A stretch of 64,000 nucleotides of DNA from Eledone cirrhosa (GCA_964016885.1 OZ024751.1:34100001-34164000), one strand, 5' to 3'; counted from the first letter of the stretch, positions 3,623-62,734 are shown. The notes: generated from the sequence alone by a model not told the origin. Made by a program: numbers and translations.

Positions 3623-3821
3623 ATAGGAAAAAGTTCAAGATCCCGACGGCAGAGCTCATGCCGTTTCGACGGCTATTTCTGGACCAGAAATAGCCGTCGA
3701 AACGGCTTGAGCTCTGCCGTCGGGGTCTTGAACTTTTTCCTATCACCCACTCTACTACCCTAAGTATTGAGTACTCTGGTGCGTTATGGTCCATCTGGTT
3801 CCTTACCACACTTCCTTCGTT
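3623..3821 (+). mobile_element. Fold-back palindromic element, family B copy 1 (Penelope-like end) in (TA)n
   Basis: 60-bp inverted arms 3623-3682 / 3684-3743 with a 1-nt centre, ~78-bp unpaired tail, TA runs on both sides. Homologous to 34993-35189 and 63908-63968. Confidence 0.8.
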
Positions 3822-4385
3822 ATATATATATATATATATATATATATATATATATATATATATATATATATATATACATATCACATACATATACAGTCAC
3901 ATATGACATATATACAGTCACATATCACATATATATATATATACATATATACATATACACACACATATCACATATATATATACATATATACATATACACA
4001 CATATCACATATATATATACATATATACATATACACACATATCACATATATATACATATATACATATACACATTATCACATATACATACATATATACATA
4101 TACACACATATCACATATACATATACACACATATCACATATATATATATATATATATATATATATATATATATATATATATATATATATATATATATATA
4201 TATATATATATATTTATATATATATACATATATACATATATATATATATATATATATATATATACATACATATATACATATACACACACATATCACATAT
4301 ATATATACATATGCAGACACACACACATATATATATACACACACATATATATATATATATGTATATATGCACACATACATACATA
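3822..4385. repeat. Compound (TA)n/(CATA)/(CA) array
   Basis: Direct reading. Confidence 0.95.
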
Positions 4386-5771
4386 ATATCGTGTATCTAC
4401 TTCTGTTTTTGTGTTGTTTTTGATTTTCCTTTCTTTTCTACGTTAATAATAGACAAAGTGGTTGGCAATTCTAACGACGCCACATTTCTTTTGATAAACC
4501 GAAATATTTACTTTAAAGATAAATTCTCTTTCCTATTTGATGCTCTATTAATTTAAATGCACTAGATACGATAGGATACTATACGACAAGTCAATATTTA
4601 CTTTAGATCTACACTGTTTCAATTACAACAACAAATAGAAGCCTCATTGATAACCTCTTCTAATCTCTCTAGCCACTCTACACATCATCGAAATGCACAG
4701 ATTTGTTTACTTATTTATTCATTTATTTATTTTTCTATTTATTTATTCTTATAGATCTTTCCTAATTGTTTCTAGCCATTTTATCTTATTTATCTTTTTT
4801 TACTATCTTCTTGTTTCGTTTTGTTTTCGCGTTTATATATTTATTTATATATTTCATGCGATAGATCCTATCTAATTGTTCTACGCCATTTTATCTCACT
4901 TATCTGTTTTATTATCTCCCTTGTTTTCGTTACGTTTATATATATATATATATATATATATATATATATATATATATATATATATATATATATATATATA
5001 TATATATATATAAAATCATTGTTTTCTGTTTGTGTAGCTAAATTTATTCCTATATATTTAATTTCGTTTTTTTGTAAATCGATTAATACAATTTAGTTAA
5101 CGATAACTTCTACTTAGTATATAGAGGAAAGACCGTGATGTGATTGTCTCAGTGGATGTGGTATCAGAAACAAACAAACAAACAACTCTTTTAAAGAATG
5201 AAGTCTCGTCTGCTGAGCATCACCGCTTGTGTTGTGTCTGTTGACCATGACATTTCACCAATTCTCAAAGACCGACTTCACCTAGCTTATGATGTATATA
5301 TAGATATATACACGTGTGTGTGTGTGTGTGTGTGTGTGTGTGTGTGTGTGTGTGTGTGTGTGTGTGTGTGTGTGTGTGTGTGTGTGTGTGTGTGTGTGTG
5401 TGTGTGTACTCTCCCATACCTGCTATACACTGAAAGCCTTACAATTAGATAGGTAAGTAGTGAGAACTATTCTACCTTAATCCTTTAGCAAAGATTCAGC
5501 AGAGATTATCTAAAACCAGCTTTGTTAATTCAAATGTTTACATTATCTTTAATAGCGGACATATCCTTGTGATTATGGGCAGTATCAGGTAAGGCACTTT
5601 CAGTTTTAACGTGCCACAGTCATCGTGTGGTTTGCTGATGAAGTTTCATGTGGTACAGAGATAAAAGATTCTGTTAATATATTCACAATGTACTAGCGAG
5701 GAACATATCAACAGTCTCCTGTAACTTCTACCATTCAACGAGATCTAAGGTTCCATGTACAACATTAATAA

Positions 5772-5958
5772 ATAATTGTTTCTACTTTTGGCACAAGGCC
5801 AGCAATTACCCAGTGTATTACTGGTACTTTATTTTATCGACCCTGTAAGGATGAAAGGCAAAGTTAACCTAGGCGGGATTTGAACTCAGATTGGAAAGGG
5901 ACGTAACTCTATGCGTCAAAGCATGGCGTCCGACCCTTTACCGATACTGCCAATTCAC
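5772..5958 (-). mobile_element. tRNA-derived SINE family 1
   Basis: Minus strand: A-box-like TGGCAGTATCGGTA, B-box GAGTTCAAATCC, core GGTTAACTTTGCCTTTCATCCTTAC..GGTCGATAAAATAAAGTACCAG, tail GCTGGCCTTGTGCCAAAAGTAGAAAC. Confidence 0.85.
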
Positions 5959-7117
5959 ATAAATAATATTTGTTTTAAAGGAAAATTGCTCATCTGAAAG
6001 ATGGCAAGATTTTTTTTAAATATTCTAGATTGATTACTTTAATTCTGTCTGTCTGACTGTCTGACTCAGCGTCTGTCTAGCTGCATGTCTGTCTGGCTGT
6101 CTGCCTCAGCGTCTGTCTAGCTGCATGTCTGTCTGGCTGTCTGTCTGCCTCAATGCCTGTATGCCATTGTAGATTGTATAGCCTGTGTATGTATATATGT
6201 ATGTATGTCGACCTGAGTGTGTGTGGTTGCTCGTATTCTATTATAACAAGTTAATGTCTCTGACGGCGCCATAGCAGCAAAAGCACGTGGTGGTGTATTT
6301 TTATTACGAAACTGTGGCGTCATTCAGTTGGTTCGTCCAAATTAAGTGGGCCTTAACAGCTGACCGAACATTATCGATTGTTCATACTGTCTAGAACAGA
6401 ACACAGTGTTTTAATGTTCGATTCTTTCAAATCATATCCTTCTCTCTCTCTCCATATATATATATATATATATATATATATATATATATATATATATATA
6501 TATATATATATATATATATATATATATATATATATATACGTGTATTATACACATATGTAGATAGACATATATATATATATACACACACATACACACACAT
6601 ATACAAATACACACACACACATATACATACATATATTTATATGTATATATACCCCTTTCTGATTATCTCCTTGTTACCCTCACCTCCTCCTCCTTCTCCT
6701 CTCTCCCCTCATACTGTCTGCCTCTCTCACACCTTTCCAAACTATTAGCTTTCCTTTATTGTTCATGTTTTCTTCTAATTCAATCCTTTTCTCCTCTTTT
6801 TCACTCCTGCTACAATCTTATCCTCTTTCTTTCAGAAACGTTCACACGCACACATACACACACACACACACATATATATATATATGCATGAATACGTACA
6901 CAAACGCGAACACACATACATACATACACGTTTTTCTCCATTCAGCGTTTTAGTTTCCATTCAGGGTTTGTAATTTCCATCGATTAAAGGGAGAAAAACT
7001 ATCCATTTCATCGCTGCTGCTGATATCTCTCAGGGAAAGAATTCTTCAACTCACCAACATCTAAAGATCAACACACACATACCCCACCATATATACACAC
7101 ACACATATATATATTTA

Positions 7118-7432
7118 TGTGTGTGTGTGTGTGTGTGTGTGTGTGTGTGTGTGTGTGTGTGTGTGTGTGTGTGTGTGTGTGTGTGTGTGTGTGTGTGTGT
7201 GTGTGTGTGTGTGTGTGTGTGTGTGTGTGTGTGTGTGTGTGTGTGTGTGTGCGTGTGTGTGTGTGTGTGTGTGTGTGTGTGTATCGCCGCGGGATATAAA
7301 CGCAAATAACTACATACATACTTAGAGAAACAGACAGACAGATAAGTGGATAGATAGATAGATAGATAGATAGATAGATAGATAGATAGATAGATAGATA
7401 GATAGATAGATAGATAGATAGATAGATAGATA
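7118..7432. repeat. (TG)~80 followed by (GATA)~20
   Basis: Direct reading. Confidence 0.95.
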
Positions 7433-60817: not shown

Positions 60818-60985
60818 GGGGCGGCGAATTGGCAGAGTCGTGAGAAAATTGGATAGAATGCTTTGTGGTATACGTTCCGTCCCTCTGTGCTCTGAATTAA
60901 AATACCACTGATATCAACATTGCCTTTGCTTTATATCCTTTCGAGGGCGATAAACAAAGTACCAGTCCAGTACTGGTGTTGATTC
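60818..60985 (+). mobile_element. SINE family 1, with head
   Basis: GGGGCGGCGAATTGGCAGAGTCGT..., TTGCCTTT..ATCCTTTCGAGGGCGATAAACAAAGTACCAGTCCAGTACTGG. Confidence 0.7.
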
Positions 60986-61798
60986 TAATATTGGTATGAA
61001 TGAATGAAAATGTATAAGCAATCTCCTCAAACATAAAATCCACGTACATCAACGAGACAAAGACTAATGTTCCTATCTTATCAAAGTACGAGGCTTGAAA
61101 AATTGATTAGTTGAAACCAACTGGTTAATGATCAAACATTGCACGCCTTACATAAATGACACAAAGCAAAGCCCATTATGCACAGCTGAGAAATACTTCC
61201 TTTTAAGAAAGTAAACGTCTACTTTAATCAGGAAGATAGAAATTGTAAATATGAACTCACGTAAACATATTCTACCTGACAAATTACAATATTGAAATAG
61301 AATCTGATTAATCTATAGGTCATTTATAAGTAAACTAGAGAACCTGGAAATTTTTACAGCATGGAGTCTCCCGGTAACTAATACCAAGGATAATTCTGTG
61401 AACAGATGAATCATTGTTAATATGTAATAATTGTCTCTCCAAAATGAAAAAAGGGGAGGAAAATATAGTTTAATTTTACTATAATATAATAATATATTTT
61501 ACTGTATTAGATGTATGAGAAGCTATTTCCAGGTATAGTTGCACGAGACATAAGAAGGCTCCTCAGGACTAGACATATTGAGTAGCACAGCTTGCAACAG
61601 ATAATATATTTAGTGAGAGAAAAATAGTTAGAGATGTGTTTATTTCTGTGTGTATATATATATTCCACATGCCATACATATAGTCACACACAGTAACACA
61701 GACACACACTTATCTCATACACACATCCACATATAGTCGTATATGATTCTACCTAGATATATCGTACGTCATTCATTTTCCTTAATCCCCTTCCCACG

Positions 61799-62335
61799 TA
61801 TATATACATCTATGCGTATGTGTGTATGTGTGTATATATATATATGTGTGTATGTATGTGTATATATATATATATGTATGTGTATGTATGTATACATATA
61901 TATATATGTATGTATGTGTATATATATATATATATATATACATCTGTATATATATGTATATATACATGTGTATGTATATATATATATACATCTGTATATA
62001 TATGTATATGTATGTATATTTATATATATATATATATATGTGTATGTATATATATATATATATACATATATATACATGTGTATGTATATATATATACATG
62101 TGTATGTATATATATATATATATATACATGTGTTTGTATATATATATATATACATGTGTATGTATATATATATATATATATATATATATATATATATATA
62201 TATATATACATGTGTATATATATATATATACATATATATACATGTGTATGTATATATATATATACATATGTATGTATATATATATATAGATATATGCATG
62301 TGTATGTATATATATATATATATATATATATATAT
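61799..62335. repeat. Compound (TA)/(TG)/(TATG) array
   Basis: Direct reading. Confidence 0.95.
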
Positions 62336-62339
62336 TTAG

Positions 62340-62734
62340 TGACGAAACATAAGTCAATTGCATGAACTCATAATCATTTATTTACTGCTATATATATTTC
62401 GATGACAGCCATTGAATGACTATGACCTCATCAGGCAGTTAGTCAGTTCTTAGATATGCCAGCTCTGTGTTTATAGTTTTGATGGTATCAGAGCCTTGGG
62501 ACATATTGATACCATCAACACTATAAACACAGTGCTGGCATATCTAAGAACTGACTAACTGCCTATTGAGGTCATAGCCATTCAATGGCTATCATCGAAA
62601 TATATATAGCAGTAAATAAAGGATTATGAGTTCATGAAATTGACTTATGTTTCGTCAGTATTATAACTCCAGAACTTATATCTTCGTAGAGTGCTCCCTA
62701 TCCGCATACTGAAGTAGTGGATTTTACCAACACT
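62340..62734. mobile_element. Fold-back palindromic element (151-bp arms, 16-nt spacer, ~76-bp tail) with hammerhead, in (TA)n
   Basis: Arms 62340-62490 / 62507-62657; TA-rich arrays on both sides. Confidence 0.82.
62384..62439 (-). ncRNA. Type-I hammerhead ribozyme motif
   Basis: ACTGC-CTGATGA-G..ATAGTCAT/ATGGCTGT..C-GAAAT-atat-AT-A-GCAGT, then AATAAA. The mirror copy near 62558-62613 has a damaged core (CTATTGA). Confidence 0.78.

Follow-up and report, generated by a model that had tools for sequence, protein, structure and literature searches.

A duplicated hairpin beside the insertion ends of Hydra-clade Penelope-like elements is a likely start-site signal for reverse transcription

Enzymes of Penelope-like elements (PLEs) are the closest relatives of telomerase, and the architecture of PLE insertions, in which a head-to-head inverted copy is combined with a tail on one side only, has been a long-standing mechanistic puzzle. 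The Hydra clade of C-terminal EN+ PLEs was described by Craig et al. 2021 (PMC8557442). In the available part of that paper its members resemble the elements of our window (the whole 64,000-nucleotide stretch of Eledone cirrhosa DNA that was analysed) in (TA)n insertion, an inverted 5'-truncated copy and a one-sided tail; close to the 3' end the Hydra-clade members have a canonical type I hammerhead, a motif that varies in completeness among the window elements (see below). The clade is marked by RWK and DKT motifs, a C-terminal endonuclease and the lack of CCHH. The tails are given there as 30–40 bp, as against ~65–80 nt in the window (143 in element C), and neither a conserved tail motif nor a duplicated hairpin is described in that part of the source. 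For purified PAc, a Poseidon-clade PLE of Anolis carolinensis, the accessible sections of Frangieh et al. 2024 (PMC11167929) report two internal reverse transcriptase (RT) start sites that delimit the genomic tail downstream of the hammerhead, a precedent for the reading given here; both target strands are cut and extended, and a dimeric state is predicted for the protein. We suggest that a duplicated hairpin is likely to be an RNA signal, a few bases 5' of which the Hydra-clade RT starts copying, and that this clade is the likely source of the five window elements, as 5'-truncated insertions. The putative start sites are deduced from insertion ends, and we infer the likely Hydra membership of the window families indirectly, because the window has no RT.

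The five elements (A–E, Table 1) each combine an inverted 5'-truncated copy, a one-sided tail of 67–143 nt and insertion into (TA)n, a target that is not specific to the Hydra clade. By blastn, A and E belong to the same family (88%), and both fold back at the same point; families A, B, C and D show no mutual alignment. The original prediction had called the families unrelated, which holds at the level of DNA alignment only; they probably represent one clade. Family A is high-copy, and its RAD reads reveal two classes of ends running into TA (3727/3729/3743 and 3811/3817). A and E have the 3' half of the hammerhead, the 5' half having been lost in A at the fold-back point, and the hammerhead core is mutated in the tailed arm of D. 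The B hammerhead, which was not called by descriptor scripts, has the shape CTGANGA-TCC..GGT-GAAAC, like the Hydra-linked hammerhead of loci L244 and L318. Among the 150 of 269 Rfam matches listed for the window there was no hammerhead and no match at the motif sites, and its six frames contained no PLE peptide motif and no RT or endonuclease remnant linked to A–E.

Table 1. Elements, hairpins and hammerhead motifs in the window
Feature	Coordinates	Strand	Description
Element A	3626..3820	+	Fold-back hairpin 3626-3740 and 80-nt tail, between (TA)n runs
A hammerhead, type I, 3' half	3699..3727	+	GAAAC, stem III, GTC, stem I 3' strand; by eye
A motif hairpin	3749..3776	+	ACTC 3749-52 pairs with GAGT 3769-72; inner stem 3753-56/3763-66; TT bulge 3767-68; ACTC flank 3773-76; model match 16.4 bits
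Element E (A family)	34994..35187	-	Hairpin and 77-nt tail
E motif hairpin	35038..35065	-	ACTC 35065-62; GAGT-ACTT 35045-38; model match 16.4 bits
Third A-family copy	63860..63965	+	Tail-less end; variant hammerhead core CTGAGAA (variant 5' half)
Element B	13953..14770	-	750-bp palindrome and 67-nt tail
B motif hairpin	13989..14012	-	ACTC 14012-09; GAGT-GCTC 13996-89; inner stem and bulge deviant
B hammerhead motif, type I, tailed arm	14050..14089	-	Mirror copy 14700-14739 on +; by eye
Element C	34539..34958	+	87-bp arms, internal loop, 143-nt tail
C motif hairpin, long loop	34824..34887	+	ACTC 34824-27; 5-bp inner stem; TT bulge; GAGT-ACTC 34880-87; top model match, 17.0 bits
Element D	62336..62733	+	325-nt palindrome and 73-nt tail
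D hammerhead motif, type I, intact, tail-less arm	62384..62439	-	
D motif hairpin	62666..62696	+	ACTC 62666-69; TA bulge; GAGT-GCTC 62689-96; model match 11.4 bits, E 0.55

The tails share the octamer GAGTRCTC, with exactly four sites in a scan of the whole window and a variant in E; all five sites were checked and proved correct in position and strand. The E variant (35038-35045, minus strand), originally taken for a one-mismatch copy, is better read as a common family form: in run X20, T replaces the last C in 7252 of the 14140 RAD reads covering it, which do not represent copy numbers. The motif of the A/E family is thus GAGTACTY. The octamer belongs to a bulged stem-loop, RCWC-stem-loop-stem-TN-GWGY-RCT, of which it forms the 3' strand and the adjoining flank: the TAACTC noticed earlier soon after the arm supplies the 5' strand of the stem and pairs with GAGT, and the resulting 4-bp ACTC/GAGT outer stem is present in all four window families, with loop and bulge positions varying between copies of the A family (RAD reads). 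Both the stem-loop nature and the presence of two copies per full-length element were absent from the original prediction. The ACCA..CAC-like end that it had pointed out occurs in three window tails and was not conserved in the larger set, where tails mostly have AT-rich ends. A coding motif was rejected (stop codons in two of the frames considered, by eye; motif upstream of the ATG in full elements), as was a tRNA-derived tail (no D-stem, by eye).

An independent set of 33 Hydra RT loci was found in the DNA of other animals with a peptide-derived pattern that makes no use of the RNA motif. At least three PLE peptide motifs were present at nine of these loci, and the hairpin at five of the nine. 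Thirty matches to GWGYRCT followed by TA were obtained in five genomes, against nine with the reversed pattern, and the 5' strand, although no stem had been required, was present by eye in 20 of them. The hairpin occurs in 14 of 15 distinct hammerhead-to-TA ends of 95–145 nt, 28–40 nt before TA, and in none of 29 short ones (25–69 nt). Its inner stem has 29 of 30 Watson-Crick pairs in ten distinct hairpins versus 12.8 after permutation, none of 20000 permutations reaching 29, a figure that is not a probability as the ten include related families. Double-sided, compensatory changes affect three of six pairs, and the first pair changes from G-C to A-U in the window families. Where the region upstream of the ORF start is intact, in four cases, all four have the hairpin twice (one copy is degenerate in L317), and the two copies, placed between hammerhead and start codon in full-length elements, are spaced by 38, 39, 38 and 39 nt. 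The ORFs concerned are only 38–49% identical; the reference loci have RWK in 5/5 and DKT in 4/5, and one of three Hydra-type proteins scanned gave a weak C-terminal match to GIY-YIG. In the accessible part of the Craig et al. supplement (PMC8557442), the hairpin was recognised by eye in four of the six new Hydra consensi of File S7, being at best degenerate in Hydra-1_Obim. In an exact-string search, which matches across line breaks can escape, no consensi other than those of Hydra had the motif in a tail or in a 5' position.

The association appears to be specific to this clade. A model built from 19 non-window, Hydra-linked instances gave eight matches, the best four being C, E, A and D, so that, by the shared tail hairpin as defined here, four of the five window sites are its top matches. 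GWGYRCT was found in 0/15 ends or junctions of the GAAACG (DKG) type at G001 loci, only ~3 of which extend into a tail or ORF junction. Applied to 30 non-Hydra PLE loci, the model gave four matches, of which two were one and the same neighbouring Hydra-family tail, one was a decayed Hydra-family tail and one was stemless and chance-like. Rfam offered only five sub-threshold, unrelated matches in four Hydra loci. The outer stem of the ORF-linked loci was GCTC/GAGC in 18 cases and GCAC/GTGC in one, the ACTC/GAGT version being seen in none of these 19; the window families differ in this respect, and no ORF is present in the window.

When viral contigs were scanned for the motif followed by TA, the 23 loci obtained all lacked a hairpin arm and a hammerhead, and the 102 loci of a control scan were noise as well; several of the viral-contig loci are tRNA-Asn look-alikes by eye. 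A peptide-pattern scan of the same kind of contig returned one irrelevant locus. With the central dinucleotide left free, a metagenome scan yielded 113 loci from 7 of the 64 parts of the collection; among the matches listed, the 16 GAGTRCTC loci all scored below 60 for an arm, a threshold reached by two loci with other centres. We regard the metagenome scan as uninformative rather than negative, as suitable hosts appear rare there.

Our reading draws in part on the position of the insertion ends. Tail-less ends lie 3–8 nt before copy 1, at -3 to -6 in six G001 families and at -5, -3, -7, -8 and -5 in the window elements; this range leaves out one noise row and one row that a script placed at -13, owing to a difference in repeat length, and that reads as -5 by eye. 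Tailed ends lie 4–6 nt before copy 2 in three cases: -4 in L313, -5 in L298 and -6 at the Hydra-1_Crog consensus junction, the latter two read by eye. Most end points have a TA-like patch: of 23 instances, 17 have TAT/ATA at -10..-3, and 7 have it in the stretch immediately upstream. The fixed distance from both insertion ends in independent Hydra families bears out the shared cis signal of the original prediction as one tied to end formation and probably read by the element's own protein, and it does not extend to the dimerisation role suggested alongside.

We propose that the RT-endonuclease would bind each hairpin in an RNA running through a tandem junction and would nick the (TA)n DNA, whose 3' ends may then anneal to a short UA-like patch just 5' of the hairpin. 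Priming by one target strand at copy 2 would lead to copying of the spacer, copy 1 and the arm, giving the tailed arm, and priming by the other strand at copy 1 would give the tail-less inverted arm; the two truncated cDNAs, joined head to head, would form the asymmetric palindrome. The PLE tail would here represent one repeat unit of the hairpin signal. A start signal never copied by its own start would also explain the need for more-than-unit-length transcripts. Weak points of the start-site reading are element B, whose inner stem is deviant and whose hairpin the model missed at E<=10, element C, in which no complete hammerhead was found, the ACTC/GAGT stem of the window families, which no ORF-linked locus showed, and the small number of tailed ends (three). 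Furthermore, a master copy with copy 2 was seen for none of the window families, and the abundant A/E hairpins, if self-amplifying, would retain a tail without copy 2. More tentatively, the portable hairpin could be a telomerase-like positioning element. Its fixed-spacing copies would then each load one subunit of an RT-endonuclease dimer, and each subunit would prime one nicked (TA)n strand from a short UA template 3–8 nt 5' of its hairpin. If so, the tail, the inverted arm and the microsatellite targeting would all follow from one 20-nt signal, which lies outside the copied sequence and could bring about the integration of whatever RNA was situated 5' of it.

The main rival, which we consider rather unlikely, is a cut signal: the hairpin would guide cleavage 3–8 nt upstream, the ends so cut would become those of the insertion, and incomplete cleavage at copy 1 or 2 would produce tail-less or tailed ends. 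The same offsets are predicted. The substrate could be RNA, cleaved under protein guidance or by a new self-cleaving motif of very small size; alternatively, the GIY-YIG endonuclease could cut cDNA or donor DNA in single-stranded form. Variable loop length and covarying stems disfavour a double-stranded DNA site and leave a single-stranded cut unaffected. The conserved part comprises only ~20 nt, which is small for a ribozyme, and a new miniature self-cleaving motif is very improbable, less likely than a positioning element. The full-length copy L313 starts at the first C of copy 1, and the curated start of Hydra-1_Ajap also falls at copy 1, in line with cutting, although for L313 a transcript start would be just as compatible as a cut. 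Craig et al. (PMC8557442, available part) ascribe tails to endonuclease-mediated resolution, and Frangieh et al. (PMC11167929, accessible sections) cite a requirement of the tail for endonuclease recognition in D. virilis Penelope. Against this, the sole PLE tested in vitro, from another clade, initiated internally, independently of the RNA 3' end or hammerhead cleavage (same sections of PMC11167929). We regard a start-site signal outside the copied strand as the best reading of these ends.

It is improbable that the hairpins are promoter-proximal or translational expression elements, with the ends set by something nearby such as the UA patch alone. Copy 2 does end 17–31 nt before the likely start codon in all four full ORF starts, and promoters have been located in PLE pseudo-LTRs according to the consulted portions of PMC6765202 and PMC3846280; however, the near-constant offset at both ends, the duplication and the 38–39 nt spacing, maintained at such low protein identity, would be left unexplained.

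The suggestion that the near-palindromic octamer serves RNA dimerisation through a kissing contact is one that we find hardly credible. Y tracks the R on the 5' side of the stem in 23/23 instances, and not the R that comes after it, although the 19 non-window instances had been selected for perfect stem-1 pairing. A self-complementary Y-R core (T-A, C-G or wobble T-G) is present in 10 of the 23, and PLE hammerheads act as dimers according to the consulted portions of PMC4209133 and PMC6765202, but the other 13 have C then A and are incapable of self-pairing.

Chance coincidence picked post hoc is a negligible explanation. The raw count in the window is only marginal evidence by itself (six strand matches versus 1.75 expected; at least six in 3/100 shuffles), and the signal is in position. 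All five sites lie inside the unpaired tail of a TA-flanked hairpin and point toward its free end, 23–28 nt from arm end to octamer start (64 nt in C) and 36–44 nt from octamer end to TA run (71 nt in C). The four tails have a single one-degenerate octamer in common, GAGTRCTC, and any shared octamer of this kind arose in just 2/5000 dinucleotide-shuffled sets, a test that allows for post hoc choice; the original claim of a common, outward-pointing tail motif is thus real, and recurrence with covariation in the independent set refutes chance.

A sequence-and-structure signal that predicts both insertion ends within a few bases, and is conserved at 38–49% protein identity across several animal phyla, opens the insertion-end puzzle to simple mutagenesis in an existing kind of in vitro assay. 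Its 35 nt can also serve as a diagnostic in invertebrate genomes rich in microsatellites, where hairpin repeats that have no ORF could be assigned to a PLE clade. The literature searched did not describe the motif, which may be noted in Repbase, Dfam or subscription papers outside that search.

Among known systems, non-LTR retrozymes are also non-coding PLE derivatives with type I hammerheads, but in the available part of their description (bioRxiv 10.64898/2026.07.22.740005) they form tandem head-to-tail repeats, whereas the window elements are single head-to-head insertions with a tail, and this identity was rejected. An initial guess of Naiad origin was dropped as well: Naiad is without a canonical hammerhead, that of D is intact, and the motif goes with Hydra. 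A further group of PLEs next to (TA)n, with DKG and hammerheads of the GAAACG type, which we label 'Neptune-like', has the target, the hammerhead and tail-less ends in common with the elements described here. Bulged or terminal RNA stem-loops position the RT on its template in hepadnavirus epsilon, telomerase template-flanking elements and LINE/SINE 3' stem-loops. LINE stem-loops lie within the copied region and the present hairpin would lie outside it, the likeness being functional only, with no sequence relationship shown. The PAc starts are inside the ORF, at an AC-rich stem-loop, and in the accessible sections of PMC11167929 no conserved signal is defined and the Fig. S1 RNA has no GWGYRCT; here the signal is non-coding, duplicated, 3' of each putative start and conserved across host phyla.

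The window consists of AT-rich eukaryotic DNA with 86 (TA)n tracts after merging, and the five TA-flanked elements in it (A to E) are fold-back palindromes, each carrying an unpaired tail at one end only. A hammerhead, an inverted truncated copy, a one-sided tail and a (TA)n target are the anatomy described for insertions of Penelope-like elements (PLEs) (PMC8557442). The type I hammerhead motif is intact in element D and present, as read by eye, in B; A and E keep only its 3' half, and a whole hammerhead was not found in C. The elements are like PLE insertion units in every testable feature, bar a complete hammerhead in all, and this element class is already known. 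They likely belong to the Hydra clade of PLEs, judging by shared hairpin, target and hammerhead shape and not by reverse transcriptase (RT). When the arm and tail of A were compared with four sequencing runs (22279 reads in X20, 19543 contigs in X1), loose ends of the family entered TA both where the arm ends and where the tail ends.

Elements and other features of the window
Feature	Position	Strand	Description
Element A	3626-3820	+	Fold-back palindrome and tail, TA-flanked
Element E	34994-35187	-	Same family as A; palindrome and tail, TA-flanked
Element B	13953-14770	-	Fold-back palindrome and tail, TA-flanked
Element C	34539-34958	+	Fold-back palindrome and tail, TA-flanked
Element D	62336-62733	+	Fold-back palindrome and tail, TA-flanked
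Third A-family copy	63860-63965		Tail-less; hammerhead with variant core
TA-flanked fragment	17037-17573	-	Intact hammerhead (17452-17531), then apparent ORF start; neither GAGTRCTC motif nor palindrome; probably part of a PLE of another type
Hammerhead variant	62826-62865	-	GAAACG type with CTTGAGA core; TA at 62765 is about 60 nt away; motif absent at this tail-less end
Apparent composite	62766-63965		Two unlike PLE ends, apparently joined
Inverted 43-nt arms	34476-34518, 35206-35250		C and E lie between; both may have inserted into one TA-centred palindrome
Palindrome	47163-47336		TA-centred, near-perfect, about 175 nt
Decayed non-LTR retroelement	24717-32749	-	ORF1-like, endonuclease-like and RT-like frames; motifs presumably L1/Tx1-like
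LINE 3' end	16492-16953	+	Enters (TA)n; presumably RTE-like

Exact GAGTRCTC occurs at four sites in the window, all inside element tails and all reading toward the free end; element E reads GAGTACTT in its tail at the motif position. By count alone the excess is marginal, 3 of 100 shuffles reaching it. But no other one-degenerate 8-mer is shared by all four tails, and among 5000 shuffled tail sets only 2 share any such 8-mer. Outside the motif, the four families do not align with each other.

In each window tail, GAGT pairs with an ACTC upstream of it. Inside this stem lie inner stems unrelated in sequence; the bulge has T first and is 2 nt long (1 nt in B), and RCTY directly follows the stem. 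In the A family, about half of the reads have T as the final base of the 8-mer. The 40 variable rows listed, out of 77, include loop (3759-61) and bulge (3768) positions but none from 3769-3775. C3750T, found in about a tenth of reads, retains a wobble pair. A string search of the Craig supplement with the motif in reverse orientation gave unexpected sense-orientation matches in Hydra-clade consensi, GCTC...GAGC-ACTC, a compensatory version of the window hairpin. Among six consensi examined there by eye, the hairpin is found in Amil2, Ajap2 and, twice each, Ajap1 and Crog; it is at best degenerate in Obim, and Amil1, lacking both hairpin regions, falls outside the comparison. The ACTC/GAGT version was not seen adjoining an ORF.

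Prokaryotic assemblies were searched with a Hydra RT peptide pattern for animal host DNA remaining in such bins, and several of them (G001-G005) contain PLE-rich host DNA. The hairpin is present in 5 of the nine loci, out of 33, that have at least three PLE peptide motifs. In G001 (12 Mb; PLE protein matches: 23 of Hydra type, 115 others), a hairpin pattern without complementarity requirement gave 93 overlapping matches and its reversed control 0. With the 5' strand removed from the pattern, that strand was still there, by eye, in 20 of 30 matches from five genomes (control, 9 matches). Hammerhead-to-TA ends gathered blind to the motif (46 rows) show two length modes: the motif is in 0 of 29 short ends (25-69 nt) and in 15 long ones, the two long rows without it being a GAAACG-type end of another clade and a spurious row. 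Among collapsed, position-defined long ends, 14 of 15 have it, 28-40 nt before TA. Measured from GAAAC/T, arm ends and tail ends in the window (40/117, 42/109, 59/132) lie within or close to these two length classes. Of the 30 cells for the first three inner-stem pairs, 29 are Watson-Crick, against 12.8 when permuted (0 of 20000 reach it), a figure inflated by related families, and 3 of 6 pairs have changed on both sides. A covariance model of 19 instances, none from the window, gave 8 matches there, with C, E, A and D ranking first and B missed. No Rfam family was found for the hairpin in the window (among matches listed) or at Hydra loci. GAAACG-type, DKG-bearing PLE ends in G001 have the motif in 0 of 15 rows, of which only about three reach the tail or junction, and the GAAACG versus Hydra split is only rough because one Hydra-linked hammerhead also has GAAACG.

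The Hydra ORFs share 38-49% identity (markers RWK 5/5, DKT 4/5). All four starts with an intact upstream region have two hairpins between hammerhead and ATG, spaced by 38 nt (L315, L317) or 39 nt (L318, L313), with copy 1 degenerate in L317; a fifth, truncated start (L298) retains copy 2, the one nearer the ATG. Compared with longer members of their families, TA-flanked ends without a tail begin to differ ahead of copy 1, by 3-6 nt in six G001 families (leaving out one row put at -13 by the script and one noise row) and by 3-8 nt in the five window elements. Tailed ends begin to differ ahead of copy 2, by 4 nt in L313, 5 nt in L298 and 6 nt at the Crog consensus junction. The tail is therefore copy 1 plus spacer. 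TAT/ATA lies at -10 to -3 in 17/23 instances versus 7/23 just upstream. One full-length Hydra copy (L313 minus strand, 2371, G001:C716) starts at a TA junction on the first C of copy 1, and its direct terminal repeat is therefore the tail unit.

A Poseidon-clade PLE in vitro starts reverse transcription at two internal sites bounding the tail and extends both target strands, as shown by Frangieh et al. (PMC11167929). Joining this to the Hydra hairpin geometry, we infer, as a fairly probable mechanism, that each hairpin would be bound by the Hydra protein and that copying would begin a few bases 5' of the hairpin, with nicked (TA)n paired to a UA patch as primer. One target strand would be primed at copy 2 and the other at copy 1, and joining of the two truncated cDNAs would yield an asymmetric palindrome. 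A loose end for this model is that A and E share a fold-back point and their family is abundant, yet in the part of the genome covered no master copy carrying a second hairpin turned up. The hairpin could instead mark a cleavage site, which would leave the same ends; that L313 starts exactly at copy 1 speaks for it, but we regard it as rather unlikely. Roles of the hairpins in expression are improbable, and the proposed RNA dimerisation through the near-palindromic motif is highly improbable, 13 of 23 cores being unable to self-pair. Sharing of the motif by chance hardly deserves consideration.

In the template RNA of PAc, a Poseidon-clade PLE of Anolis carolinensis, a GAAAG...ACAAC unit occurs twice, by eye, near the two start sites (PMC11167929, supplementary figure 1), a hint that tails of other clades, too, may be delimited by duplicated signals. 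Two non-Hydra PLE families of G001 with a GAAACG-type hammerhead (L407:93-260, L413:3483 onward, L425:2081 onward) have GTRTCC-N3-5-GGATCC and then TTCWTCG downstream of the tail-less end, possibly an end signal of that clade (n=2 families, by eye). Small PLE-like hairpins with hammerhead-like cores adjoining TA, at two metagenome loci, L171 (minus strand, about 2700-2520) and L216, have GAGTTCTC and GAGCCCTC at their centres in place of the motif.

In the literature searched we found no mention of the hairpin's duplication or of its fixed position relative to both ends; Repbase, Dfam and subscription journals could mention them. The hairpin may be analogous to hepadnavirus epsilon, telomerase RNA and the stem-loops of LINEs. 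We conclude that the motif is a real and general cis element of a known clade, apparently undescribed so far.
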